Shown here piece by piece: positions 19,191-33,166 of a stretch of DNA of 64,000 nt. The notes under the pieces were generated by a model, which saw nothing but the letters and a program-made list of their open reading frames with translations, had not been told where the DNA came from and ran no database searches. Made by a program: the position numbers and the translations under genes. The DNA is from Candidatus Aenigmatarchaeota archaeon (GTDB taxonomy: Archaea; Aenigmatarchaeota; Aenigmatarchaeia; QMZP01; QMZT01). The stretch covers positions 832,001-896,000 of the forward strand of contig CAVSBQ010000002.1 of the NCBI GenBank assembly GCA_963726265.1. The letters are read 5' to 3'. Positions within the stretch are counted from its first letter, which is position 1; every line of letters starts with the position of its first letter.

Positions 19191-20144
19191 CTACAGGCCG
19201 CCGAAGACTTCCTGCTCCGGGTATATGACTATGCCTTCCTTGTCGACTATCTGCATGGCCACCACTTTCTTGATGTGCTTCGTGCCGCGGAGTTTGAGTA
19301 TCTCTATCGCGTTCTCGCGGACGTCGCCCTTGCGGATGTTGTAGAGCACGACGACGCCGTCGGCCAGGAATTCCTCCACGCCCGTCGGGCTGAACGTTTC
19401 GGGAATCTGCTTCGTCTCGGCTATGAGGAACGACGTCGTCCCGATCCGCTCGAAATACCTGAATAATTGTTCGACGTAACTCCTGTACTGCCAGCTCTTG
19501 CCAAGGAAATACGACGCTATCGAGCTCAGCGAATCAAGGACGATGATGTCCGGCATGAAGCCTTCCGGCAGGAGAACAGGCTCTATTTCTATGAGCAGTT
19601 CCCCCCGTTCCTTGGCCAGCATGGCCTCGACAGAGCGCGCGATCTCGTAGGAATTCATCCTCCTTATCAGGAGATTCCCCTTCTTTTCGAGCTCTTCTGC
19701 GTTCCAGCCGAAGTCGTTCATGTGTTTGCGCAAGCGGACCTCGGATTCCTCGAAGGACATGTATAAGCATTTCTTGCCGTTTTTCGCGGAGTTGGCAAGT
19801 ATCTGCAGGCACATGATTGTTTTGCCCGAGCCGGCTCCGCCGGCAATCAGGATGGCTGACCCCTTGGGTATGCCGTTCTCGATGAGCTGGTCAAAGCCCA
19901 CTATGCCGGTTTTAATGAAAGCGGTTTCCTTTTCCTGCGTTTTCTTCTTATCCTCCGCCTTCTCGATATGTTCTGGCTTTTGAGCCGGCTTAGCAATGGG
20001 CTTCGGCTTCTCGGCATGTTGTGGCTTTTCAGCGGCCAGCGGCTTTGCCTTTTCAGCAGCCTTCTCAGCGGGTTTTTCATGTTTCGGATGGCCTTTAGGC
20101 CTTTCACGCGCGGCCTTCCTGCCTATCCCTTTCCTTACAGCCAT
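19191..20144 (-). CDS. KaiC/RAD55-like ATPase with Lys/Glu/Pro-rich N-terminal extension
   Basis: TGIVGFD, GGAGSGKT, SFEE, IVLDS, ADGV, LKLRGT. Confidence 0.9.
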   Translation of the reverse strand: MAVRKGIGRKAARERPKGHPKHEKPAEKAAEKAKPLAAEKPQHAEKPKPIAKPAQKPEHIEKAEDKKKTQEKETAFIKTGIVGFDQLIENGIPKGSAILIAGGAGSGKTIMCLQILANSAKNGKKCLYMSFEESEVRLRKHMNDFGWNAEELEKKGNLLIRRMNSYEIARSVEAMLAKERGELLIEIEPVLLPEGFMPDIIVLDSLSSIASYFLGKSWQYRSYVEQLFRYFERIGTTSFLIAETKQIPETFSPTGVEEFLADGVVVLYNIRKGDVRENAIEILKLRGTKHIKKVVAMQIVDKEGIVIYPEQEVFGGL

Positions 20145-20268
20145 ACATGAAGTTATTGAATTGTTTGCTAATAAAATTTTGTAAAAACGGGCCGGTTTAC
20201 CCAAAAGCGGCAAAAGGGGATAAAAAACTGCCGAAAAGGTTTAAATATTTTACCTAAAAATATAACTT

Positions 20269-20601
20269 ATGGCCGAAATACGCTCGATTGACGTGAAAAG
20301 GAGCGAAATATCGGTGAACCTGAAGATATCCAAGGCCGAATACGACATGATAAGCAATACGACCTCCGACCTTCTCCTCATACCGACGAGCCAGAGTTTC
20401 CTCAGCCACTCGCTGACCACGGGCAAGCTCGGCAACAGCAACAGGATAATGCTGCCGAAAAAAATACTGGAGAAGCTCGAAATAAAGGAGATGGACAAGA
20501 AGGTCCCCGCAAAGACGTTCAAGATGGACGACGAGATTTTCCTCCTGATAAAGCTGAAAAAGTCGACCTTCGGCATACCCGTGTTTAAAGATACGGAGTG
20601 A
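20269..20601 (+). CDS. Hypothetical protein with AbrB/MazE-like swapped-hairpin motif
   Basis: GKLGNSNRIMLPKKILEKLEI. Confidence 0.55.
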   Translation: MAEIRSIDVKRSEISVNLKISKAEYDMISNTTSDLLLIPTSQSFLSHSLTTGKLGNSNRIMLPKKILEKLEIKEMDKKVPAKTFKMDDEIFLLIKLKKSTFGIPVFKDTE

Positions 20602-20630
20602 GTGAAACTAAAAAATAGTCGAGAGGTGGA

Positions 20631-21302
20631 ATGATGTTCGTGACGACCGGCATAAAAAGGATGGACAAGCTGCTTGGAGGCGGCTTCCCGACAAAAACTA
20701 CAGTCCTCGTTTCAGGAGGGCCGGGCTCGGGCAAGACGCTCTTCGCGCTGAACTTCCTGATGGAAGGCGTGCTGAAAAAGGAGAAATGCTGCTACGTCTC
20801 GCTGAACGAGACGAAAGACGAGCTGCTTCGCGCATGCAAGGGCATAGAGGCGCTGAGCCACGCGGAGAAGTTCCTTGGCAAGAACCTGGCCATAGAGCAC
20901 ATACCGCTCGGCGAGAACATAACCATGAAGAAGTTCATAAACATAATCGCCGCTTACCCGAAAATCGACAGGCTGGTCATAGACAACGTGAACAAGCTGC
21001 TCATATTCGCCGAGAACGACCGCTCATACAGGGTCCATCTTTCCGAACTGGTGAAGAGCCTGAGGTCAACGGGCTGCGCCCTGCTGATTTGCGAAACGAA
21101 GGGCGAGAGCATAGACACGGGCAACGGCGAATCATTCGAATGCGACGGCGTGCTTTCGCTTTCGTTCCTTGAGCTGGAAGAGAAACCCATGAGGACGCTC
21201 ACATTCCACAAGATGCGCTATGCGAACTTCGACCCAAAAGTGCCGCATGAGTTCGTTATAGATGAAAAGGACCTTAAACTCACAGAAACGAAAATAATAT
21301 GA
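20631..21302 (+). CDS. KaiC/RAD55-like ATPase (single domain)
   Basis: TGIKRMDKLLGGG, GGPGSGKT, LVIDN, CDGV, HKMR. Confidence 0.9.
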   Translation: MMFVTTGIKRMDKLLGGGFPTKTTVLVSGGPGSGKTLFALNFLMEGVLKKEKCCYVSLNETKDELLRACKGIEALSHAEKFLGKNLAIEHIPLGENITMKKFINIIAAYPKIDRLVIDNVNKLLIFAENDRSYRVHLSELVKSLRSTGCALLICETKGESIDTGNGESFECDGVLSLSFLELEEKPMRTLTFHKMRYANFDPKVPHEFVIDEKDLKLTETKII

Positions 21303-22370
21303 AGCTTGCAGAGGCCTTCAGAAGGAATCTTATAGAAACTGCAAAGGGCGCTTTTTTGAACAAGTTCAGGATAAAGGCCAGAAGGGACGTTCTTTTTTTC
21401 GAGGACATACTCATCGCCTATGCCAAGGAGTGCGAAAGGCTCGGCTTCGGAAAAGCAATAGAGGAAAGCGGCATGAAGTGGGGCGCCCTGCTGCTCAAGG
21501 TTCCTATGCCTTCTGCCCTGAAAAGCCTGCCGCCGGCCTTCCTGCTGAACAGCATCCTTGGAAAGATTTTCGTGAACCTCGGCCTCATGGACGACATACG
21601 CGTGTCCGAAAGCGGGGCGAGGCTCGTTCCTGAAGGTGAAAAACGAATCCTTTTCGAATAATTATGAAGGCAACGTCTTCCTCCGGGGGCTGCACAGGGG
21701 CTTCCTGAGCCAGCTTTACGGCATTCGCCTCGACGCTGCCGGGGTTTTCAGGGACAGGGCTTATTTCGTTTATGAATATGCAAAAAGAAACGAACCCTTC
21801 CATATCGCATCCAAATCCAAGGCAAAATACAACGAGCTGAACGCGATGCCCGAAGACGTAGGGTTTACCATAAAGGATGCGCTTAAAACCGGCATGCTCA
21901 GGCTGAGCGGCGCAAACAGGCTTTATTTCAGGGGCAGGGTCCTGAACCCGCTCGAGAACACGATATTCCACCTGCTGGGAAACATGCAGCTTCCCATGGA
22001 CAGGCTTGCTGAAGTTTCGCAGGCGTTTTTCAGCCAGATACTGGAAGCCGGCTCGGGCAGGGACGACAGGCTGGTTCTCCTTAAAAACCTCCTGCAGCTC
22101 ATGGGCTGGGGCAATGTAGGCATGATCGCCAAAAAAGAAGCGGTGACGGTGAGCATAAAAAATCCGCCTTACGGCTTCCAGGCGGAAAAGGACAACTGGG
22201 AATTCGTAATCGGAACGATCCTCGGCTTCATGCGGACGATAGACAAAAGGTTCTCGCTGAAAAAAGTGGAGGAGTCACGAAGGATGGTTTCAGTTACATT
22301 CTCCCTTCAGCAAGGAGCAGTTGTAGTCCCCGCATCCCGAGAATTTCCTCCTTGTCATGCAGCCGCCTGA
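21299..22370 (+). CDS. Tandem V4R-like ligand-binding domain protein; frameshift near 21620
   Basis: Two repeats: NLGLM...KNESF...GLHRGFL and LMGWG...KNPPY...GTILGFM; split over ORFs 21299-21661 and 21636-22370. Confidence 0.55.
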
Positions 22371-23375
22371 GCATTTTTCAGAGGCTTTGCACGATGCGCA
22401 GGCAGGCGGCGCGGCTACCGAGGCAGAGAACTGTTTTATCTTCGACAGATGGAATTCGAAGAGCTTGCCTGCCGCCCTGTTATCGGCTTCATTATCGAAA
22501 ACGTTGTACATGGGCGTTCTCTGCGTCACGCATGGGAACACGTCGCCGCTGCTCGATATGGTCATGAAGGCACCCCTCGCCGCGGTGCAGAAGCCGCCTG
22601 AAACCTCGAGGCCTGTCCTGAAGCCGTTCGGGAAAAGCGGCTCGCCGGATTCGATTCTCCTAGCCCCGTTTTTTCGCGCGAACCCGGCCAGTTTTTTCAG
22701 GGTTTTTATGTAGTCCGACGGCAGAAGGCTCATGTTGCTCGCCGCGGTGCCTGACGGCGTTATGTCCCATACCCTCGACCTGTCTATCCCAAGGCTCCTC
22801 GCGAACCTGAATATGGCGAATATCTCCTTCTCGGTTTCCCTGGTTATCACGGTCTGCGAGACCGTGGTCATGCCCGCGGCCTTGGCGTTCTTCAGCGCCT
22901 GGACAGCCCTCTCGAATGATTTTTCCATGCCCCTTATGCGGTCATGCCTCCCTGCCTCTAGGCTGTCTATGTTTATCTGCACCTGGGAAAGGCCGGCGCG
23001 GCTGAGATCCTGCGCCATTTTCCTGTCGAGAATGTAGCCGTTCGTGTTCATGTGGACGACGAAGCCGTTTTCCTTGGCGAGCCTTACCGCGTATTTTATG
23101 TGCGGATAAACCGTCGGCTCGCCGCCGGAAAAGGTTATCTGCCTGACGCCGTTCGCTTTAAGCAAAGTAATCAGCCTCTTCAGGTTTTCAGGGCTCATGT
23201 GATGGCTCAGGCCCGAGCCTTTGCCTGCTGCGGCGTAACACCATATGCAGTTGAGGTTGCACGAGTTCGTGACCTCGATCACTGCCCACGCGGTCTTCCC
23301 GTGCTTTTTGTAGTGCTTGACCTTTTCAACGGCATCGTTATCATTCCAGTCAAACGTCACTACGCACATCCACAC
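22290..23375 (-). CDS. Radical SAM protein with SPASM domain
   Basis: CNLNCIWC, FSGGEP, NTNG, C...GDVFPC, CASCKASEKCSGGC. Confidence 0.93.
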   Translation of the reverse strand: MWMCVVTFDWNDNDAVEKVKHYKKHGKTAWAVIEVTNSCNLNCIWCYAAAGKGSGLSHHMSPENLKRLITLLKANGVRQITFSGGEPTVYPHIKYAVRLAKENGFVVHMNTNGYILDRKMAQDLSRAGLSQVQINIDSLEAGRHDRIRGMEKSFERAVQALKNAKAAGMTTVSQTVITRETEKEIFAIFRFARSLGIDRSRVWDITPSGTAASNMSLLPSDYIKTLKKLAGFARKNGARRIESGEPLFPNGFRTGLEVSGGFCTAARGAFMTISSSGDVFPCVTQRTPMYNVFDNEADNRAAGKLFEFHLSKIKQFSASVAAPPACASCKASEKCSGGCMTRRKFSGCGDYNCSLLKGECN

Positions 23376-24178
23376 ACCCCGCTGAGGTTCATCGCTATCG
23401 CGAAGACCTGGAAGAAAATGAATGACGCAAGCATCGAAAACCTTGTTTTTTTGTGATCATCCATGCGCAGGAAAAACGAGACCATGAGCATGAACGGGAC
23501 GAGCGCGTAAAGAGACGCATAGCCCAGCAGCAGCACGGCCGCGGAGAAAAGCGCGCTTATGGCGTAAACGGTCCCTTTCGCCGCGCCGACGCCGAAAACA
23601 AGCGGGATGGTCCTCACCTTCGCCGTTCTGTCGCCTTCGCAGCCCCTTATGTCGCCCAGCAGGTTGAGCGTGAAGCCGAAAATGAAAATGAAGGGAAGGT
23701 GGGCCACGGCCCCCGCTCCGATTTCGCGCGATGCCGCCGCGCCTGCAAGGAACGTGAGCGCTATAGTCAGCCCGGTGAAAACGTTTTTTGCTATGAAAAT
23801 TCCCTTTATCCTCGCCCCGGAATAAAGAACGCCCATCAGCATGAGGAGAAGGTAAAGCGACGTGGAGGCGAAAGAAAGAGCGAAGGACAGGCCAAGGCCC
23901 GTCAGGAAAAGCATGAGAATGATGACCTTGCCTGGCGCTTCGTTGACAACGAAATAGTTGAGCCTCCTGTTGTTCACCCCGTCCTCCTTCCTGTCCGTCA
24001 CGTGATTATAGGCGTAGCTGGCCGCCGTGCCGAGAAATATGGCGGCGAAAAGATAAAGGATTCTCACGTCGATAAAATTAAACAAGGCGTAGCCTGCGAT
24101 GGATATTCCTGTCACGAAAAAGCAGGTTTCAACCCTTATGAACGAAAGGAACTCGGCCAGAAGCCTCTTGTTGCCCAT
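23360..24178 (-). CDS. UbiA-family prenyltransferase
   Basis: NHVTDRKEDGVN and GDIRGCEGD Asp-rich motifs, multiple TM helices. Confidence 0.88.
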   Translation of the reverse strand: MGNKRLLAEFLSFIRVETCFFVTGISIAGYALFNFIDVRILYLFAAIFLGTAASYAYNHVTDRKEDGVNNRRLNYFVVNEAPGKVIILMLFLTGLGLSFALSFASTSLYLLLMLMGVLYSGARIKGIFIAKNVFTGLTIALTFLAGAAASREIGAGAVAHLPFIFIFGFTLNLLGDIRGCEGDRTAKVRTIPLVFGVGAAKGTVYAISALFSAAVLLLGYASLYALVPFMLMVSFFLRMDDHKKTRFSMLASFIFFQVFAIAMNLSGVCGCA

Positions 24179-24220
24179 CCGTTTATATATTATTATCTTT
24201 TCTGTATATAAATCATTCAA

Positions 24221-24232
24221 ATGTTTAAACAT
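24221..24232. promoter_or_regulatory. Palindrome ATGTTTAAACAT, candidate operator (second copy at 32848-32859)
   Basis: Perfect 12-bp palindrome between two divergent TATA boxes. Confidence 0.45.
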
Positions 24233-24276
24233 GATTTAATTAAATTTATAAATACGGTCCGCCAATTACTCTTATT

Positions 24277-24828
24277 ATGGCGCTCGACCTGCTCAGCGAG
24301 ATAGCGAACAACAAATTCCTCCTGATACTCATGGAGGAAAGGGAATACCTGTCGAAACTCGAGGAGATAATGAAGTCCGCCGAAAAGACCAAGACCAGGA
24401 TATGCTACGTGTGCCTGAACAAGCCATACGATGATGTGGTGAAAGACCTGAAAAACAAGGGGATAAAGACAGCGGATTTCTTCTTCATAGACGTTCTCAC
24501 CTCGCATTACAGGGAAGCGGCGTCCGCCGCGAACTGCATCTTCCTGCGCTCGCCCAACGACCTCGCGGCCATGAGGATCGCCATCAAAAAGGCCGTGGAC
24601 GATAAAAAGTGCAGCGTCATCCTTTTCGACACGATTTCCACGCTCCTGATTTACCAGCAGACTTCTTCAGTCATAAAATTCACTCACAATCTCCTTTCGG
24701 ATAACGTGAAGGAAGACGTCAAGAAGCTGTTCATACTGCTTAAGCACGACACAGTCTCCGCAGAGGAAAGCGAAAAGCTCGGCAAGGACCTCGGCATGTT
24801 CGCGGACAAGACGCTTGACATGAAATGA
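24277..24828 (+). CDS. Degenerate KaiC/RecA-fold protein lacking Walker A (DUF835-like)
   Basis: CYVCLNKPY, FFIDV, ILFDTISTLLIY, MFADK. Confidence 0.75.
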   Translation: MALDLLSEIANNKFLLILMEEREYLSKLEEIMKSAEKTKTRICYVCLNKPYDDVVKDLKNKGIKTADFFFIDVLTSHYREAASAANCIFLRSPNDLAAMRIAIKKAVDDKKCSVILFDTISTLLIYQQTSSVIKFTHNLLSDNVKEDVKKLFILLKHDTVSAEESEKLGKDLGMFADKTLDMK

Positions 24829-24884
24829 GCGCGGCGGCAGGCCTGAACGGCCGCCGCACATTATATTAATAAGAAAGACCCAAT

Positions 24885-25265
24885 ATGATAAATATGGCCA
24901 AGAAAAGGATAATGGTCGTTGACGACGAGGATAGCCTGAGGGAACTAATCAGGGCAATCCTCGAGGCCGAAGGTTATGACGTCACGACTGCGGAAGACGG
25001 CAACGACTGCCTGAAGAAACTGAAAACAATGAAGCCCGACCTTGTACTCCTCGACATGATGATGCCGGGCATGAGCGGCAGGGAAGTGTGCGAAAGCATA
25101 AGGAAAGACCCCAAGATCAAGAACCTGAAAGTCGCTTTCCTCACCGTCGCCAAGTTTTCCGAGTCTGGCAAGGGAGTCCTCGGCCAGATGAAGGTCCTCG
25201 ACTACATAACCAAGCCATTCGATAACGACGACCTGGTAAAAAGGGTAAAGAAGATGGTCGGTTAG
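24885..25265 (+). CDS. Stand-alone response regulator receiver
   Basis: VVDD, LLDMMMPGMSG, FLT, YITKPF. Confidence 0.95.
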   Translation: MINMAKKRIMVVDDEDSLRELIRAILEAEGYDVTTAEDGNDCLKKLKTMKPDLVLLDMMMPGMSGREVCESIRKDPKIKNLKVAFLTVAKFSESGKGVLGQMKVLDYITKPFDNDDLVKRVKKMVG

Positions 25266-25311
25266 TTTTTACTTTTTATTCAGGCCGCATAAATTAATAT
25301 TATTGACTCTT

Positions 25312-25512
25312 ATGACTCTCAAGGAAGAAGCCAAGGAATTACTGAACAGGCTGCTTGGCTCCGTGGTTTCGGAACAGGTTGACGGTTTTGATGACCCTGA
25401 AAAATACCCGAAGGACTTCCTAGACGAGTGCGGGGATTTCCTCGGGAAGTTCATAGGCCAGGACGCGGCCAAGAAGAAGCTCGAGCCGCTTTACAAAAAA
25501 TATATAAAATGA
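25312..25512 (+). CDS. Small helical hypothetical protein
   Basis: 66-aa ORF between the receiver and the membrane protein. Confidence 0.6.
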   Translation: MTLKEEAKELLNRLLGSVVSEQVDGFDDPEKYPKDFLDECGDFLGKFIGQDAAKKKLEPLYKKYIK

Positions 25513-25524
25513 CGTGGTGGAAGA

Positions 25525-26340
25525 ATGAAAATCAAAAACTTGCATCTGGGACTTTTGGCGTTTGCCGTGCTTTTTTTCGCAAACCTTGCAATTTTTTATT
25601 ACGGCCCGGCGATGGAAAATTTCTACATAATAGCTGATTACTGGGTCATGATACTGGCGCTCCTCGCGGCGGCATCGGGCTTCTTTGCATACAGGATGCA
25701 CGGCCTCGGCAGCGTCCAGGGAAAGGCGCTTTTCCTTATCGCAACGGGGACGCTTTTCTGGGCGCTGGGGGAGCTTGCGTGGGGCAGCTATGAAATATTC
25801 CTTGGCATGGAAAAGCCGGTCGCTTCAATCGCCGACGTGTTCTGGTTCATAGGCTACGGCTTTTTCTTCTGGGGGCTGTTCTTCATAACCAGGCTCTCGG
25901 CCGCGCCCCTCGGCAGGAAAAAACTCGCTCTTGTGCCTCTGGTCATCCTGATATGCTCGGTGATGATATACATATCCTTTCCCACCATAACAGACGCTGG
26001 AATGGCTTTGATTGAAAAAACAGCGACCGCCGGCTACGTCCTGGGCGACATGCTCCTGCTCGTTTCGCTGGCAATTACCATTACGTATCTTCTCGGCAGC
26101 AAGCTCATCAAACCCTGGAGCATAATTTTCATTGGGCTGATCCTCAGCACATTAGCTGATATATTTTACACGTATTTCATCGGCTCATACGAAACCGGGA
26201 ACCTGATAGACATACTCTGGAACGTGGACTACATTCTCATGGGCTTCGGCTTCTTCTATTACAGGGAAACCATAAAGGGGATATTCGCATCGGCAAAGGA
26301 AACGATGTCAGCCAAAACCAAGGAAAGCAAGAAAGCTTGA
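25525..26340 (+). CDS. Multi-TM membrane protein (membrane sensor-like, no output domain)
   Basis: About 8 TM helices, W.LGE..W and PVASIADVFW motifs. Confidence 0.7.
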   Translation: MKIKNLHLGLLAFAVLFFANLAIFYYGPAMENFYIIADYWVMILALLAAASGFFAYRMHGLGSVQGKALFLIATGTLFWALGELAWGSYEIFLGMEKPVASIADVFWFIGYGFFFWGLFFITRLSAAPLGRKKLALVPLVILICSVMIYISFPTITDAGMALIEKTATAGYVLGDMLLLVSLAITITYLLGSKLIKPWSIIFIGLILSTLADIFYTYFIGSYETGNLIDILWNVDYILMGFGFFYYRETIKGIFASAKETMSAKTKESKKA

Positions 26341-26374
26341 AAAACTGCCAACCATCCAGCCCCCCCCCCCAGGC

Positions 26375-28078
26375 CTAGAATCTGGTCCCTTTGGCGGTGA
26401 TTTTCTTCGATCTTTCAAGCACTTCCTCCGCCTTCGCCTTTTCGTCCTTTATTGCGGACCCTGTAACGTTTTTCACGGGCAGGGTGAAGTGGAACTCGCT
26501 TCCCTTGCCATGCTCGCTGCTGAACCAGATTTTACCTCCGAGGGCATTGACGAATTCCTGGCATAGCGAGAGCCCGAGCCCGACGCCTCCTGCCGACCTT
26601 GTATAGGACGAGTCGACCTGGTAGAACCTCTCGAATATCTGCGCGTGATGCTCTTTTGCGATGCCTATGCCGGTGTCCTTGACCATGAAATGAACGTTTT
26701 CTTTCTCCCTGAAAACCTTGACCGTTATCTTGCCGGAAGGCGTATACTTCACCGAGTTGTTTATCAGGTTTATCATAATCTCCATGAGCTTTTCCCTGTC
26801 CGTTGTTATTTTCGGCAGGCCTTTCTCCATGTCGTATTCCGAAGCGAGGCCCTTCTGCTTCATCTGCACGTTCATCTCCTTCTGGATGCCATCCATGAAT
26901 TCACTGAGGTCGATTTCTTCTATTGCCAGCTTGAGGGTGCCTAAGTCGATTCTGGACAGGTCGAGTATGTCCGTGACGAGCTTTGCCAGCCTATCGGTTT
27001 CATGGTCCATTATATTGAGGTATTTGTTCCTCTTTTCCACATCCTTTATGATGGCCTTGTTCTGGAGCAGCTGCGAGAAGCCGTGTATCGACGTCAGCGG
27101 GGTTTTCAGCTCGTGCGCCGCTATGGAGATGAACTGGTCCTTCTTTATGTCCGTCTCTTTCAGCTTGAGCAGGCTTTCCGTGAGCTCTTCCTGCGTTTTT
27201 ATGAGCTCCCTGTTGGCGTCGTCCATGTCGTCCATCATGTTGAGAATCGCGGTTTTCATGTCTGTAAGATCCTTTATCTTCTCATCCAGTTCCTTGGTTC
27301 TGTCGACAACCTTTTGCTCCAGCTCCTCCTGGTGTTTTTTAATCTGGTTCTGGTAAATTTTCAAATCCTGCGTCATCTGGTTGAAGGTTCGTGATAAGTT
27401 CCCTATCTCATCGCGCGATTTGATATCAACATTGTAATCCAAATCGCTCTTCGCGATAGCCTCGACACCTTTGCTGATTTTCATGATCGGCTTTATGATT
27501 ATCATTCTCAGAAAAAAGAAGAGCACCATGATGAATAAGACCATCAGCATGAAATATCCTATCGTGAGGGTGCTTACAGCCGACAGTATTTTTTTGTCGA
27601 CGTTTTCCATCGTGAAGTCCAGCTGCACGGTGCCGATGACCTGGCCGGACAGGTGGAGGGGCGATACGATTTTAAGGACTCTTGAGGAGTCCCTGTTGTA
27701 AATGCTCGTTATCAGGATTTTTTTTTCATACGCCTCGAAATTTTCGGGGTCGGGTTCTGCGTCAACCTTCCTTGGGTCGTTTGATACGTAATTCACCAGC
27801 CCGTCTTTGCCCGGCATTACGTAGGTTATATCGATAATTTCAGGATCCAGCCACATGAGCTTTTGTATTCCCGACATCAGCTCGTCCTTTTTCTGCAGGC
27901 CTTCAGCGCTTTTTATGCCCGCTTCCAGCGAATACGTGGTCGATTTCGCCCTCTCTATGAAGTAGTTTGTCAGGTCCGTTTCATAACTGCTGATATTGTT
28001 GGACAGAATGATGATAAAAAGGAGTAAAAAAAGCAAAGTAACTACTCCTATTATCTTTAGCGTTATGTTTATTTTCAT
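26375..28078 (-). CDS. Membrane sensor histidine kinase (2 TM, extracellular domain, HAMP, HisKA, HATPase)
   Basis: SRDEIG.L..TFNQM, AHELKTPL, NLINNSVKY, DTGIGI, GVGLGL. Confidence 0.95.
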   Translation of the reverse strand: MKINITLKIIGVVTLLFLLLFIIILSNNISSYETDLTNYFIERAKSTTYSLEAGIKSAEGLQKKDELMSGIQKLMWLDPEIIDITYVMPGKDGLVNYVSNDPRKVDAEPDPENFEAYEKKILITSIYNRDSSRVLKIVSPLHLSGQVIGTVQLDFTMENVDKKILSAVSTLTIGYFMLMVLFIMVLFFFLRMIIIKPIMKISKGVEAIAKSDLDYNVDIKSRDEIGNLSRTFNQMTQDLKIYQNQIKKHQEELEQKVVDRTKELDEKIKDLTDMKTAILNMMDDMDDANRELIKTQEELTESLLKLKETDIKKDQFISIAAHELKTPLTSIHGFSQLLQNKAIIKDVEKRNKYLNIMDHETDRLAKLVTDILDLSRIDLGTLKLAIEEIDLSEFMDGIQKEMNVQMKQKGLASEYDMEKGLPKITTDREKLMEIMINLINNSVKYTPSGKITVKVFREKENVHFMVKDTGIGIAKEHHAQIFERFYQVDSSYTRSAGGVGLGLSLCQEFVNALGGKIWFSSEHGKGSEFHFTLPVKNVTGSAIKDEKAKAEEVLERSKKITAKGTRF

Positions 28079-28870
28079 TTACTTGAACCACTTGTCTTTG
28101 ATTTCCTGCAGCCTGCCGCTCATTTTCATTTCGCTTATTATGTTGTCTATTTTGTCCATCAGGGCCCCGTTTCCGAGCTTGGTCACGACACCGTAGTATT
28201 CCTGCGTGAAAGGCTCGCCGACGATTTTTAGCGTGGGGTTGCTCTTGACTACGCCAACTACCCCGACATAATCCTGAACGCCGGCATCGATTTTTCCGTT
28301 CACCAGGTCCTGCGTTATTGTGTCGGAACCATCGTAACTCGTCACCATGGACGGATCAATGCCCTCGATTGCCAATACAGCCTTTTCGCCAGTCGTTCCA
28401 TTCAGCACTCCTACTTTTTTGTTATTAAGGTCACCGGGCGTCTTTATGGCAGCAGTTTCGCTTCTTGTATATATCACCTGCCCGCCGTCGAAATACGGAG
28501 CGCTGAAAAGCATCTGCTGCGAGCGCTCCTGCGTAATCGTTATGGAAGAGACCAGTATGTCCACGTCACCGCTTTTCACCGACGAGAACATGTTCGGGAA
28601 CGACATCTCCCTGAATTCTGCTGCAATCCCTATTTTTGATGCAATTTCCTTTGCCAAGTCTATGTCGAACCCCACAAGGTTTCCTGATGCATCATGGAAA
28701 GTCATTGACGGAATGTCACCGAACGTTCCTACTATCAGCTTTCCGCTGTCCTTCACACTCTTCAGCGACAGATCGCCTGCCTGATCCATGGGCTGCGTGC
28801 AGCCGGACGCGAAAACGGCCAGCAGCATCATAATGGCAAACAGCCCAAACATTCCCCTTTTATTTTTCAT
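28079..28870 (-). CDS. Family-3 (polar amino acid) solute-binding lipoprotein
   Basis: Lipobox-like ASGC, GFDID, ITITQERS, FSAPY, GEPFT. Confidence 0.92.
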   Translation of the reverse strand: MKNKRGMFGLFAIMMLLAVFASGCTQPMDQAGDLSLKSVKDSGKLIVGTFGDIPSMTFHDASGNLVGFDIDLAKEIASKIGIAAEFREMSFPNMFSSVKSGDVDILVSSITITQERSQQMLFSAPYFDGGQVIYTRSETAAIKTPGDLNNKKVGVLNGTTGEKAVLAIEGIDPSMVTSYDGSDTITQDLVNGKIDAGVQDYVGVVGVVKSNPTLKIVGEPFTQEYYGVVTKLGNGALMDKIDNIISEMKMSGRLQEIKDKWFK

Positions 28871-28993
28871 ATTTCACAACACCCCCAATCATTCCAGCCA
28901 CTTATTCTTGATTTCATCCAGTTTCCCGTCCCTTTTCATTTCCCTGAGTATTCTGTTTATCTCATCCATGAGCGCGTTGTTGCCGAGTTTGGT
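28759..28993. repeat. 235-bp direct repeat, copy 1
   Basis: Identical by eye to 29563-29797 (offset 804). Confidence 0.9.
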
Positions 28994-29674
28994 TGCAATG
29001 CCGTAATATTCACTGGTGAAAGGTTCGCCCACTATTTTGAGCGAAGGTTCTTGTTTTGCATATCCCGATGCTCCTATCAAATCCGTGACCATTGCATCCA
29101 ATTTGCCTCCAATGAGGTTGTTGATAATTTCTGTATATGAATTGTATGATGTTATTGTTTGCGGTTCGGCATACATCATTGCAGCTTCTTTGCAAGTAGT
29201 TCCATTAAGAACTCCTATTTTTTTACCTCTCAAATTTTCCGGAGAAGTTATTTCGTTGTTATCTTTTCTGGTCATTATGACTTGTCCGGCATCCAAATAA
29301 GGGGAGCTGAACAGCATCTGTTGCGAACGTTCCTGGGTTATGGTTATGGCGGATATTATGATGTCAACGTCGCCCGCTTTCACATTATCGAAAAGATCAC
29401 CCCAACTTATTATACTGAGTTCAGGCTGGACGTCGAGTTTCAAAGCTATGTCATTGGCGACATCGACATCGAAACCAACTAATTTTCCCGAGCCATCATA
29501 AAGCCTCATCGGCGGAAAGTCCGGGTCGATGCCAATCATGATTCTGCCTCTGTCTTTCACGTTCTTCAGCGACAGATCGCCTGCCTGATCCATGGGCTGC
29601 GTGCAGCCGGACGCGAAAACGGCCAGCAGCATCATAATGGCAAACAGCCCAAACATTCCCCTTTTATTTTTCAT
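28889..29674 (-). CDS. Family-3 solute-binding lipoprotein (middle copy)
   Basis: Same motifs; N-terminus identical to 28079-28870, C-terminus identical to 29693-30499. Confidence 0.92.
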   Translation of the reverse strand: MKNKRGMFGLFAIMMLLAVFASGCTQPMDQAGDLSLKNVKDRGRIMIGIDPDFPPMRLYDGSGKLVGFDVDVANDIALKLDVQPELSIISWGDLFDNVKAGDVDIIISAITITQERSQQMLFSSPYLDAGQVIMTRKDNNEITSPENLRGKKIGVLNGTTCKEAAMMYAEPQTITSYNSYTEIINNLIGGKLDAMVTDLIGASGYAKQEPSLKIVGEPFTSEYYGIATKLGNNALMDEINRILREMKRDGKLDEIKNKWLE

Positions 29675-29797
29675 ATTTCACAACACCCCCAATCATTCCA
29701 GCCACTTATTCTTGATTTCATCCAGTTTCCCGTCCCTTTTCATTTCCCTGAGTATTCTGTTTATCTCATCCATGAGCGCGTTGTTGCCGAGTTTGGT
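29563..29797. repeat. 235-bp direct repeat, copy 2
   Basis: Identical by eye to 28759-28993. Confidence 0.9.
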
Positions 29798-30499
29798 CGC
29801 CATGCCGTAGAACTCCTGGGTGAAAGGCTCCCCTGCAATTTTTAGCGACTGGTCCCTTTTCACAAGGTCCGTCGCAAGGACGTAGTCCGCTACCATGGCG
29901 TCTATAGTGCCTGATTTCAGGTCGTATAATATGCCGCTTTGAGGATTTCCTTCCGGAACATCAAAACCGTCATATGGCATGGCAGTAGCCCCGTATTTTT
30001 CCGCCTCGTCTATGCTAGTAGTTTCCTTCTGAGCCCCGACTTTCCTGCCTTTTAGGTCTTCTGGAGTTTTTATTTCATTATTGCTGTTCTTAACCACGAT
30101 TGTTTGGCCTGCATTGAAGTAAGGGGAACTGAAGAGCATCCTTTCAGACCTCTCTGGCGTTATGGTTATGGATGCAATGGCGATGTCGATATCGCCATTC
30201 TCCACGGCCTTGAACAGTTCATCCCAGGCATAATCGACGAATTGAATTTCAACACCCATCGAGGCGGCGATTTCCCTGATTATATCGACGTCCAAACCCA
30301 CTACCTGGCCTTTCTCGTCATAAAATTCCATCGGCTCATAAGGTATGTCGCTGCCCACGACGAGCTTCCCGCTCGCCTTGACATTCGATAGCGACGCATC
30401 CGTTGATCCGCCAGGAGCGTTAGTCGTGCATCCTGAAATCGCGACTACCAAAAACAAAGCTGTTAAAATGGCCACTGCACCACGTTTTTCATTTGACAT
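29693..30499 (-). CDS. Family-3 solute-binding lipoprotein
   Basis: ISGC lipobox-like, YEPMEF, GLDVD, ITITPERS. Confidence 0.92.
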   Translation of the reverse strand: MSNEKRGAVAILTALFLVVAISGCTTNAPGGSTDASLSNVKASGKLVVGSDIPYEPMEFYDEKGQVVGLDVDIIREIAASMGVEIQFVDYAWDELFKAVENGDIDIAIASITITPERSERMLFSSPYFNAGQTIVVKNSNNEIKTPEDLKGRKVGAQKETTSIDEAEKYGATAMPYDGFDVPEGNPQSGILYDLKSGTIDAMVADYVLATDLVKRDQSLKIAGEPFTQEFYGMATKLGNNALMDEINRILREMKRDGKLDEIKNKWLE

Positions 30500-30519
30500 A
30501 CACAACCCCAATTATCGCT

Positions 30520-32224
30520 TTAACTTCCAGTTTTATTTTTTTTAAGCTGGCTTTCAAGCTCGTTTATCCTTTTCTTCAGCTCGACCATTTTGAGTTCCCT
30601 GCCGACTGAAAGCTTGTTGATTTTTTCGAGTTCTTCCGTCCTTTTTATTATCTCCTCACCGGCCTTTTTCCTTTCCGTGATGTCCTTCATGGTGCCTAGC
30701 ATGCGGAACGCCTTGCCTTCGGCGTTTTTCAGGACCGTGCCGCTGTTTTCCATGTAAATGTAATTGCCGTCTTTGCGCATGAACCTGTATTCGGCATCGT
30801 ATTTCGTGCCTTCCTTCAGCGCCTTTTCGAGAAGGGACAAGGCCGTTTCGCGGTCATCCGGATGGATAGCGTCTCCCCATTCCTTTATGCCCATTTTCTG
30901 GAATTCGTCGAAGCCGTAGCCGGTCAGGCTGGTTATTGCGCCCAGCCATTTAATCCTCCCGGAAGCTACGTCGTAATCATAGATTATCTGGCCCGTCTGC
31001 TCGGCGGCAATCCTGTAGGTGTTCTCGTTTTCGAAAATCACGTTCTGCACTTTCTTCTGCTCCGTGATGTCCCTGAATATTCCCTGAAGCAATTTTTTAC
31101 CCTCTGTTTCAATCAGGTTGGCTTTTATCGTAACGTCCTTTAATTTCCCGTTTTTGGTGATAACGTGCGTTTCCAGTGCCTGGCCTCTGGCCTCTGTGAG
31201 ATGCTTTCTGAAGGTTTCGCTGAATTGCCCTTCGATACCTTCCGGTGGGTGGAGTATCTTCTGGTGCTGCCCAATGAGCTCTGCCTTGCTCCTCCCGACC
31301 AGTTCCGTTGCTGCGCGGTTGCAGTTGACAATTATCCCCGTTTTCGCATCGGCTATGACAATGGCGTCAAGCGCCTCCTCGAACTGTATCCTGTATCTTT
31401 TCTCGCTCTCCCTCAATTTCTCTTCGGCTTTCTTCCGCTCGGTTATGTCGCGGCCAGTGACCAATATCCCTACCGTTTTACCCTTTTCACGGACAGGAAC
31501 TGAGCCTTCATCAACTTCCAGATATCTAATTTCCCCTGATTTTGTTTTGATTTCGAGCTCTATCTTCTTCTGGGGTTGGCCGAGGAATTCCTTCGTCAGG
31601 ACATAAAAGGCGGTTTTTATGGAATTCTTTGTCAGGAAACTGGCAATCGACTTGCCTACCATCTCATTCTCTGCATAGCCGCTGGCCTCAAAGGCCCTCT
31701 TGTTGGCGAACAATATCCTCCCCGTTTTATCCAAAATGAGCATGATGTCCCTCATGCTTTCCGAGATAAACCTGTATCTTTCTTCCCTTTCCCTCAATTT
31801 CTCCCCTGTTTTTTCCCTCTCGGTGACGTCGCTGCCGACGTCAAGGACTTTGGTCACCCTGCCGTTCTCCCTGATGGGTATGCCTATAAGCTCGAGAAGC
31901 AGATCCCTGCCGCCTTTAAGCTTGATGGTATAGATCGTCTTTTCCGTCACCTTCCCCTGCAGGTTCTTCCTGAATTCCAGGAATGCCCTTATCAGATCCT
32001 TTTTGCCGAGCAGGCCGATTTCGGAGAATTTTTTGCCGATGACGTCTTTGGCTTTCAGGCCTGTCAGCTTCTCCGTATACTCATTGGCTTCCAGAATCCT
32101 GCCGCCCCTGTCGATGGTGAAAGCCACGAAAGGCAGGTTCTCAAAAATAGTCTTGTAAGCCTCACCGCCATTCCCGCTTGGTTCGTCTCGGATTTACCTT
32201 CCTTCGAAGTATCATACGCCCCAT
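30520..32224 (-). CDS. Multi-PAS/PAC protein without catalytic output; probable frameshift near 32180
   Basis: Four PAS units ending DVTE/DITE; C-terminal VGRELKMVELKK; ATG at 32224 overlaps the upstream TAA but is out of frame. Confidence 0.85.
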
Positions 32225-32793
32225 TACCCCATCTCGACGACCTTGTCCACGAACATGCTGAGGTCCTTGGTCATCTCGGTTTTCACGTCGTCCTTCAGCG
32301 CCATCAGGACGCCCTTCGAGCCGAGGGAGCGGAAAACGGATATTATCGAGTGCACGAACCTGGTAACCACAGACGACTCTTCGTATATCAGCAGCGTGGA
32401 CAGCGAATCGAAAATCGTTATGCCCGGCTTGTTGGCCTCCAGGAGTTTTTTCATGGCGATGTTCATCTCGGTCAGCGCTTTCGGAGACGAGACGCAAACG
32501 ACCTTTCCGCCTGCCTCTGTCCCCGACGGACTCTTGGTCACGCAGTCTATGAAGCAGAATTTGCTGGTGTCGATTTTGCTCTTCTCGAAGTTTTTCATCA
32601 GGGTCGTGTATGGCTTGTTCGCCGAAACGTAGCATACCTTTTCGCTGAGGCTAGCCGCTATACCGGCGATGTCGTTTATTTTTTCCGAATACTTCTCGTT
32701 GGGCACAAGGACCAGTATTATGTCGTTGTCCTTTATCGCCTTTTTTGTGTCTTCCTTCTCGATTCTGTCCTTTGTCCCGGCATCCTTGATTAT
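32224..32793 (-). CDS. Degenerate KaiC/RecA-fold protein, paralog of 24277-24828; start codon uncertain
   Basis: CYVSANKPY, FCFIDC, IFDSLSTLLIY, MFVDK. Confidence 0.75.
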   Translation of the reverse strand: MIKDAGTKDRIEKEDTKKAIKDNDIILVLVPNEKYSEKINDIAGIAASLSEKVCYVSANKPYTTLMKNFEKSKIDTSKFCFIDCVTKSPSGTEAGGKVVCVSSPKALTEMNIAMKKLLEANKPGITIFDSLSTLLIYEESSVVTRFVHSIISVFRSLGSKGVLMALKDDVKTEMTKDLSMFVDKVVEMG

Positions 32794-32857
32794 AAGCCCA
32801 CCCCAATTTAATAAATTGATTCGGTCGGTTATAAACTTAACAAGAAAATGTTTAAAC

Positions 32858-33166
32858 ATGGACGCGAAAAGGGAAAAGGTCTACGCATTTCTCAGGAAAG
32901 TTCCGTCAGGAAAAATAACAACTTACGGAGAGCTCGCGAAAGCCGCAGGCACACATCCGCGCGCAGTGGCGATGTTCATGAAACACAACCAGGACCCTGT
33001 CAATATCCCATGCTACAAAGTGATAAGGTCAGACGGTTCTCTCGGCGGCTATTCGGGCCGCGGCGGCGTTAAAAGGAAGGCGGCGCTTCTGAAGAAGGAT
33101 GGCATAGCAGTAAAAAACGGCAAAATAGAGCTCAAAAAACATCTCCACCGCTTCTCAAAATCTTAA
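32858..33166 (+). CDS. ogt: O6-methylguanine-DNA methyltransferase family protein (C-terminal domain only)
   Basis: VPSGKITTYGELA, PRAV, IPCYKVI, LGGYS. Confidence 0.85.
   Translation: MDAKREKVYAFLRKVPSGKITTYGELAKAAGTHPRAVAMFMKHNQDPVNIPCYKVIRSDGSLGGYSGRGGVKRKAALLKKDGIAVKNGKIELKKHLHRFSKS

Follow-up and report, generated by a model that had tools for sequence, protein, structure and literature searches.

What a dense run of signalling-type genes in a small archaeal genome is built to sense, and whether its parts work together at all, are the questions raised by a locus in a 64,000-nt stretch of DNA from a Candidatus Aenigmatarchaeota archaeon (assembly GCA_963726265.1, contig CAVSBQ010000002.1, positions 832,001 to 896,000; this whole stretch is hereafter called the window, and all positions are given in it). 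The locus occupies positions 19191-32859 of the window, which comes from a 1.13-Mb genome that is 88% complete, and holds 16 tightly packed genes in five transcription units, with spacers that are very short or give way to overlaps. We are confident that this island is one functionally linked unit. With less assurance, and as a modest preference, we interpret it as a KaiC-centred signalling island made of two coupled modules, one of which (Module A, 19191-24232) carries a pherotype-like cassette for signal synthesis and sensing, while the other (Module B, 24277-32859) is built around a two-component system. The most informative feature of the island, which was missed in a preliminary description of this DNA made from the sequence alone, is a block of three genes that is exchanged as a unit within a conserved frame. 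The genes of Module A, and the block itself, are the following:

19191-20213, minus strand: g1, single-domain KaiC-like ATPase (Pfam PF06745, E 2.8e-54)
20269-20601, plus strand: g2, 110-aa AbrB/SpoVT-like protein, candidate DNA-binding output (PF04014, 18 bits, below the cut-off)
20631-21302, plus strand: g3, 223-aa single-domain KaiC-like ATPase with intact Walker A and B motifs (Pfam KaiC, E 4.2e-36)
21299-22370, plus strand: g45, protein with a tandem V4R/Bet3/H-NOX fold, 356 aa once an extra base is discounted (from a fold model)
22290-23375, minus strand: g6, radical SAM enzyme with a C-terminal Cys-rich (SPASM-like) region (PF04055, E 1.3e-33, 117 bits; Fer4_12)
23360-24232, minus strand: g7, UbiA-family membrane prenyltransferase (PF01040, E 1.6e-21, 77 bits against a cut-off of 34.2)
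21303-24175, strand not applicable: hypervariable block of g45, g6 and g7, lying between the conserved g3 and g8 (the first gene of Module B)

The similarity of the window to the DNA of same-genus relatives ends at 21302-21306 and resumes at 24175-24220. Two of the relatives (loci L022 and L025) compare with each other in the same manner, as a 10.7-kb stretch of their DNA that ends with the final base of g3 shows 91.2% identity, after which identity is lost for about 2.8 kb, with a single 614-nt match at 65%, and stands at 88.6% again from the start of g8. When the encoded proteins of locus pairs are compared, percent identities are as follows:

L027 and L029: g3 98, g2 95, g45 38
L022 and L025: g3 93, g2 90, g1 92, g8 90, receiver 97; g45 39, g6 49, g7 51
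L024 and L027: g3 84, g2 76, g45 76, g6 86
L028 and L031: g3 86, g2 79, g45 77, g6 83, g7 83

The g45 protein thus co-varies with the cassette enzymes in these pairwise identities. Nine of 1378 pairs have a g3 identity of at least 85%, and their median g45 identity is 43% (range 38-87). The g45, g6 and g7 proteins of the window itself are about 31-47, 44-54 and 27-51% identical, respectively, to those of relatives, and these values stay flat whether the corresponding g3 is 87% or 47% identical. Because the identities are incongruent and the DNA edges are shared, we conclude that g45, g6 and g7 form a cassette that is replaced as a unit in a conserved frame.

What does not change upon replacement is the presence of a UbiA-family gene. 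Downstream of g45, one is found no further than 4 kb away in all 45 loci where this could be tested (those with at least 3 kb of sequence downstream of g45, a requirement that 45 of the 54 g45-bearing loci satisfy), and it is convergent with g45 in 44 of them. The fixed core of the island is therefore a set of AbrB-like, KaiC and tandem-V4R genes that, in every testable locus, faces a UbiA prenyltransferase. The enzyme that accompanies UbiA differs from locus to locus: it is a radical SAM enzyme in 14 loci, an HMGL/homocitrate-synthase-like enzyme in 21 (often together with a second UbiA, an aminotransferase or a methyltransferase), both of these in two, and a polyprenyl-synthetase-like enzyme in four, with no partner recognised in the remaining four.

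The first gene of the block, g45, needs some care, as in the window it reads as two open reading frames (ORFs) in different frames, 21299-21661 (120 aa) and 21636-22370 (244 aa). All 14 relatives that carry the gene have it as one ORF of 334-346 aa, and it is likewise unsplit in all other full-length matches; in a profile search of 201 genomes, it was split solely in the genome of the window. One base at 21626-21629 is missing from the contigs of all four public sequencing runs that we compared, which come from four studies, and its removal leaves an uninterrupted frame of 356 aa across 21299-22370. Given these runs and the single ORF of the relatives, the split is an assembly error or a strain variant and not a feature of the gene. 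The preliminary description had called this protein V4R-like, and the model does match the V4R/Bet3 fold, even though the separate pieces turned out to be one tandem gene whose apparent split is artefactual or strain-specific. Neither the window fragments nor five full-length orthologues match any Pfam family, PF02830 (V4R) included, and a profile search against solved chains gave nothing useful (best row TCA17, E 0.11); the name holds, therefore, at the level of fold only, where all the matches are structural. The AlphaFold model of a same-genus orthologue has a predicted local distance difference test score (pLDDT) of 93.6 and a predicted template modelling score of 0.92. In a VIA comparison, the N-terminal half of this model matches BcsD (Z 9.7), the V4R protein MJ1460 (Z 8.9, 126 residues, root-mean-square deviation 4.1), PoxR (Z 8.7) and Bet3 (Z 8.1), as well as the H-NOX fold, and Foldseek returned TPC6/Bet3 at E 8.5e-4, with all top rows belonging to the V4R/Bet3/H-NOX group. 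The C-terminal half of the model repeats the helix and strand order of the N-terminal one. Based on this whole-domain similarity of the predicted structure, we place g45 in the V4R/Bet3/H-NOX fold superfamily, whose V4R, PoxR, Bet3, BcsD and H-NOX members bind phenols, heme, acyl chains or glucan. In a set of 1.84 billion proteins, the family is represented by 251 clusters at E<=1e-3. A complex prediction for g3 with g45, performed with the proteins of locus L001, scored 0.00, a value that counts neither way.

The remaining genes of the island, all in Module B, are listed here because its conservation has to be judged on the whole set:

24277-24828, plus strand: g8, inactivated KaiC (iKaiC) of 183 aa, first gene of the g8-g9-g10-g11 operon (KaiC-like alignment, no Walker A)
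24885-25265, plus strand: g9, stand-alone receiver (PF00072, E 3.4e-29)
25303-25512, plus strand: g10, 69-aa soluble protein that co-occurs with g11 (no Pfam or NCBIfam match)
25525-26340, plus strand: g11, 271-aa polytopic membrane protein (no Pfam match)
26375-28078, minus strand: g12, sensor histidine kinase with a transmembrane segment, an outer domain of about 150 aa, a second transmembrane segment, HAMP, coiled coil, HisKA and HATPase domains
28079-28870, 28889-29674 and 29693-30511, minus strand: g13, g14 and g15, three tandem SBP_bac_3 lipoprotein-like paralogues (PF00497, E 1e-37 to 2e-43)
30520-32127, minus strand: g16, output-less protein with four PAS domains and a coiled-coil tail at residues ~484-535 (PAS matches in Pfam and NCBIfam)
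32224-32859, minus strand: g17, second iKaiC (DUF7504, 29.5 bits against a cut-off of 27), first gene of the operon that continues with g16, the solute-binding protein (SBP) genes g13-g15 and the histidine kinase gene

Homologues of g8 were found in 66 of the 201 genomes of the phylum that we sampled, often with a second paralogue 2-18 kb away. Twenty regions were picked by matches to g8 or g17 alone, so that the other island genes were unselected, and tblastn searches of these regions recovered full-length g2 in 15, g45 in 14 and a receiver domain (REC) in 18; other island genes surround g8 and g17 there, with altered order and orientation. When the search was anchored on g3 instead, with one genome per species, it gave 67 loci (including the genomes of the first 20 regions), many of which end at contig edges. 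These loci hold g2 in 65 cases, g45 in 54, a g7-type UbiA in 43, REC in 32, g1 in 30, the kinase in 27 and g8 in 22, and g2 adjoins g3 in 65 of the 67. According to the record titles as deposited, the closest relatives are mostly Candidatus Aenigmatarchaeota, and the titles also include five of Altiarchaeota or Altiarchaeales, three of Iainarchaeum, and one each of Micrarchaeota, Nanohalarchaeota, Bathyarchaeota and Hydrothermarchaeum profundi. Among the genomes with both g45 and an iKaiC, 21 carry them within 5 kb of each other on one contig. Since dozens of genomes carry this set of genes, the arrangement goes beyond chance, and the conservation of the neighbourhood across DPANN and other archaea, which the preliminary description had proposed as a check, is clear. 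That description had also placed its 15 contiguous genes and one divergent KaiC-like gene correctly, with the coordinates, order and strands of all 16 in agreement with ours, and its domain assignments are borne out by Pfam and NCBIfam, apart from that of the V4R-like protein, which has no Pfam match, and that of the AbrB-like protein, which is below cut-off. Its broader proposal was an integrated circuit in which extracellular and intracellular sensing converge on KaiC-like switches; the conserved neighbourhood and the effector-less receiver agree with such a proposal, which however overlooked the exchanged block and took in an SBP/PAS sensor part that is variable rather than conserved.

The domains and motifs of g12 and g9 identify them as a two-component system. 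The kinase has HisKA (E 7.5e-19) and HATPase_c (E 7.6e-32) matches, with H, N and G boxes present by eye, and the receiver shows the DD, D, T and K positions, also by eye. No other HisKA or REC was found in this 88%-complete genome, in which HATPase_c has three matches, one of them topoisomerase VI B. The receiver lacks an effector domain, as had been noted before, and its likely output, judging from gene arrangement, is the adjacent or fused inactivated KaiC: of the 66 genomes with an iKaiC, at least 36 have REC no more than 1 kb away from such a gene (read from coordinate tables), and in three of them (G031, which is that of locus L018, G043 and G019) the two are fused. Both g8 and g17 can be aligned with g1 and g3, yet neither has a Walker A motif or P-loop, a loss that defines an iKaiC. 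Matches of g8 to named families are weak and below cut-off (KaiC 22 bits against 26.6, DUF835 25.3 against 33.1, and DUF7504); the KaiC match of g17 is similarly weak, at 22 bits. As for g17, its longest ORF overlaps by about 190 nt a conserved Ogt-like gene (32669-33166), and since relatives align from residue 15-47 and it is the upstream part that overlaps, translation of g17 probably begins downstream of 32859. Some relatives (loci L007 and L018; genomes G029, G031, G067, G104 and G143) encode yet another kind of protein with an iKaiC, the third, which is about 330-347 aa long and includes an additional part that has no assignment. In six of the 20 regions (L004, L005, L006, L008, L018 and L020), the g17-type iKaiC is adjoined by a protein of about 1,400 aa with Laminin_G_3 and NPCBM-associated domains, which is absent from the island of the window.

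On the sensor side, g13, g14 and g15 have a lipobox-like SGC motif. No BPD_transp_1 permease was found in the genome, a result that is no proof of absence because the genome is 88% complete. In most relatives only the cytoplasmic half of g12 is conserved; its outer domain aligns in just two genomes, both of which also have SBP_bac_3 genes, and the closest relative by g3 identity has neither this type of outer domain nor SBP_bac_3. In the position of the SBPs, relatives have PF04392 or SBP_bac_5 proteins, or else Cache-HAMP or HAMP-only proteins. Because no permease was found and the outer domain of the kinase co-varies with the type of binding protein, the SBPs look like dedicated sensors. The three paralogues are also mosaics: about 37 residues near the N terminus are the same in g13 and g14, and about 35-40 near the C terminus are the same in g14 and g15, with ligand-binding cores that are 45-60% identical, a pattern that suggests gene conversion between tandem paralogues. 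The coiled-coil tail of g16 (ELERF.KL.VGRELRM.ELKKRI..LE, encoded at 30520-30680) ends all the output-less PAS, HAMP and Cache-HAMP sensors of the islands; it was seen in 20 PAS-only, HAMP-only or Cache-HAMP proteins from 15 of the 21 regions compared, while a database search found it in 51 proteins, none of which has a kinase domain. A Pfam scan of the tail returned chance coiled-coil rows only and no family. LOV-type photosensing by g16 was considered and ruled out by eye, as there is no cysteine motif of the NCRFL type.

We picture the working of the island as follows. In Module A, the UbiA and radical SAM enzymes would make a prenylated small molecule, the cognate tandem-V4R protein g45 would bind it, and ligand-bound g45 could then tune the KaiC ATPase g3, perhaps g1 as well, and through KaiC the AbrB-like regulator. 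In Module B, the lipoprotein-type SBPs would report outside solutes to the kinase g12, which would phosphorylate the stand-alone receiver g9; the receiver would act on the adjacent iKaiC g8, and this in turn would modulate live KaiC hexamers, with the PAS-only g16 and the iKaiC g17 possibly adding an intracellular input. That the inputs physically converge on the KaiC ATPases we infer from adjacency and fusions. The parts of this scheme do not all deserve the same trust. Sensing of the cassette product by the V4R protein, with signalling through KaiC, is a proposition that we consider nearly as probable as its opposite, though falling slightly short of it. It is doubtful that the cassette product is an exchanged, pherotype-like signal, and the full picture, that of an archaeal counterpart of pherotype communication with a lineage-specific prenylated signal, a co-exchanged V4R receptor, a readout through KaiC and the AbrB-like protein and a two-component input via iKaiC adaptors, is one that we put forward tentatively and rather expect to see revised.

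The closest analogy in logic would be the Bacillus ComQXPA system. In comQXP polymorphism, close relatives differ en bloc in the enzyme that transfers the prenyl group and the receptor that goes with it, and downstream signalling is conserved. Similarly, here an enzyme set and a candidate receptor are polymorphic as a block within a conserved frame. The differences are nonetheless substantial, as our island has no precursor peptide gene, its candidate receptor is a soluble V4R-fold protein instead of a kinase, and its enzymes are a UbiA-type membrane prenyltransferase with a radical SAM partner, so that we speak of analogy and not of membership. The ComQXPA quorum-sensing locus and its pherotypes are the subject of PMC4008528 and PMC4408185.

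Several considerations weigh against the signalling scheme as a whole. The binding and phosphotransfer steps are drawn from gene context, as are the enzymes' product and the output. The AbrB assignment of g2 lies under every threshold, g45 matches neither Pfam V4R nor any solved chain at the sequence level, and the matches to its fold are of moderate strength (Z 8-10, Foldseek E of about 1e-3), in a range close to Z values below 8, which can reflect a common arrangement. Modules A and B are most firmly linked where the genes follow one particular order (families f1, f3 and f4), and more distant loci keep g2, g3, g45 and UbiA together with receivers and kinases, often without a g8-type iKaiC; related genomes, moreover, are not independent samples. 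Since the genes in 21299-24232 abut or overlap, leaving no room for a precursor peptide gene, the analogy to ComX is only partial. Lastly, a swapped block of enzymes and binder would also be expected of a variable envelope-lipid pathway with a dedicated carrier.

This last possibility is the most serious of the alternatives, even though we regard it as rather unlikely. According to it, g45, g6 and g7 would be a variable isoprenoid lipid or envelope cassette, exchanged for surface diversity in the manner of O-antigen-type loci, with the V4R protein as a carrier of substrate or product; KaiC and the AbrB-like protein would handle or regulate the pathway, no signal would be sensed, and the two-component system would control envelope composition. 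The invariant link to UbiA (45/45) is what such a pathway would show, as are the polyprenyl-synthetase-like, homocitrate-synthase/HMGL-like, aminotransferase and methyltransferase partners found elsewhere; the Bet3/V4R fold is a binder of hydrophobic molecules, and replacement of a block between conserved flanks suits surface diversification just as well. It is less easy to explain, however, why co-transcription and translational coupling join g45 to a KaiC ATPase and a putative regulator and not to the enzymes, and why the block should sit between two signalling modules. Furthermore, Pfam detected no glycosyltransferase, flippase or exporter in the block, and g7, being one of four UbiA paralogues in the genome, need not be a housekeeping lipid enzyme. 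Hypervariable blocks in conserved frames are also typical of conflict systems, and one could imagine a defence or antagonism locus in which the cassette provides a small-molecule weapon with cognate protection and KaiC serves as an NTPase sensor. The generic match of g6 to prokaryotic viperin models (PADLOC, 9.7e-25) might be taken as a hint in that direction, but it reflects the shared radical SAM core only, and the NCBIfam viperin model scores 75 bits against a cut-off of 180; the other PADLOC matches are generic P-loop or receiver similarity, and searches with Pfam, NCBIfam and PADLOC found no nuclease, toxin or abortive-infection effector domain. We consider this explanation very improbable.

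It could be argued, finally, that these operons are independent and are neighbours merely through the shared ancestry of close genomes, as most genomes sampled are from one phylum and the housekeeping genes that flank the island are also syntenic within the genus. The set, nevertheless, stays together despite changes in order and orientation, and persists down to 47-55% g3 identity, in Hydrothermarchaeum, Altiarchaeota, Iainarchaeum and Micrarchaeota records. The existence of iKaiC-REC fusions, and a UbiA association in 45 of 45 loci that is hard to ascribe to inertia, also speak against independence, which we hold to be the least probable explanation of all.

If the island is indeed KaiC-centred, as we favour, it can be set beside what is known of such proteins. 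Makarova, Galperin and Koonin are said to have proposed in 2017 (in mBio) that archaeal KaiC-like ATPases are signal transduction hubs, with iKaiC and V4R partners. The island resembles these hubs in having single-domain KaiC proteins along with iKaiC, receivers, kinases and small-molecule-binding domains, with KaiC in the role of integrator of signals, and departs from them in being a defined, conserved island of 16 genes with an invariant tie to UbiA and an exchanged block of sensor and enzymes. To our knowledge, the idea of KaiC-like ATPases as native archaeal signalling hubs has been proposed but hardly tested. Sensor kinases that depend on a binding protein are also known, LuxP-LuxQ and TorT-TorS among them. 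As in those systems, SBPs are here encoded with the kinase, no permease was found, and the outer domain co-varies with the type of SBP; here, in contrast, there are three mosaic SBP_bac_3 paralogues, and relatives use PF04392, SBP_bac_5 or Cache-HAMP proteins in their place. The N-terminal fold of g45 is like that of MJ1460 (2oso), the PoxR/DmpR sensor domains (5fru, 6iy8), TRAPP Bet3 (3cue, 6aq3) and BcsD (8poc). What sets g45 apart from these binders is that it is a tandem of two domains, a stand-alone protein of 335-356 aa without a Pfam V4R sequence match, encoded after a KaiC ATPase and not fused to a sigma-54 activator. As to the receiver, Table 2 of Galperin et al. (2018, PMC5847659) includes response regulators of the iKaiC-REC, REC-DUF835 and MEDS-REC types, and the lineages given in that table are Methanosarcinaceae, Methanomicrobia, Thermoplasmata and relatives of Nitrososphaera, not DPANN. 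Compared with the regulators of that table, the island has the same coupling of a receiver to a presumed iKaiC-like output, along with the weak DUF835 match of g8 and the three fused relatives; in the window, however, receiver and iKaiC are separate adjacent genes.

In the literature that we searched, which covers few subscription journals, no account of this cassette was found, and it is plausible that the system is undescribed. As far as our searches reach, the new elements are the defined island, the invariant coupling to UbiA and the pherotype-like exchange of sensor and enzymes. The island makes a tractable test case, having few parts and residing in a 1.1-Mb genome in which one kinase and one receiver were found, and the nearly identical frames that hold different cassettes are natural swap experiments that could show which parts must match. 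A cassette that does make and sense a lineage-specific isoprenoid would amount to chemical signalling of a new kind in archaea and give a handle on partner sensing in DPANN; under the pherotype reading, such a system could mediate kin or host recognition in a DPANN symbiont. Should the block handle lipids instead, it would represent an unknown control device for archaeal isoprenoid chemistry.

Some further properties of the individual proteins deserve mention. Membership of g1 and g3 in the KaiC family is secure, as they score 184 and 125 bits, respectively, with PF06745 against a cut-off of 26.6. The Walker A motif of g1 is GGAGSGKT, and alignment shows its Walker B as well; in the family of g3, neither GGPG(S/T)GKT nor the Walker B Asp varies in two alignments. 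Neither protein is a circadian KaiC, a double-domain protein of about 500 aa, since both are single-domain and score 135 (g1) and 83 bits (g3) against the 408 required by NCBIfam NF006799/TIGR02655. The divergent g1 and g2 are separated by a 55-nt spacer, and an orthologue of g1 at 54-83% identity adjoins g2 in relatives; g2 is the first gene of the g2-g3-g45 operon, in which the stop of g3 overlaps the start of g45 (ATGA). The N-terminal ~90 aa of g1 (19941-20213) are a tail rich in Lys, Pro, Ala and Glu that is probably disordered, and one orthologue has an N-terminal tail of similar composition and different sequence. It is conceivable, from its Lys-rich composition, that this tail is a second nucleic-acid-binding element.

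For g2, the AbrB-like label of the preliminary description agrees with the fold matches, the best of which are AbrB-type, but not with the strength of those matches or with the PF04014 score, whose cut-off is 24.7 bits. The AlphaFold2 model has a pLDDT of 87, and the best Foldseek rows (C56/C68, MazE, VapB and AbrB) are weak, at E 0.3-2.3 and template modelling scores of 0.4-0.6. A profile search of g2 against solved chains found no relative. We keep g2 as a candidate DNA binder that is not established.

Among the cassette enzymes, the best NCBIfam rows for g6 are of the SPASM type, all well under their cut-offs (GeoRSP 129 bits against 400, NirJ2 125 against 500, and AhbD 109 against 500). 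A hydropathy scan gives about 8-9 hydrophobic segments for g7, which reaches no NCBIfam equivalog cut-off. In Module B, orthologues of g10 at 54-77% identity were found in five of 20 loci. The description of g11 as a protein with eight transmembrane segments is compatible with the ~7-8 hydrophobic segments of a crude hydropathy scan, and its Atlas matches are to unnamed clusters, the nearest named ones, MASE3 and HisKA_7TM, at only 0.78-0.79, being a lead and nothing more.

The island is flanked by the gene for ribosomal protein L6 and an unassigned 142-aa ORF on one side, and by the Ogt-like gene on the other. Elsewhere in the window, the gene for an RNA polymerase subunit with Rpb1 domain 5 (15335-17938) holds an intein with a LAGLIDADG endonuclease domain; a stretch of about 1.4 kb (15529-16895) has no counterpart in the same-genus relatives, and the intein is therefore present here and absent there.

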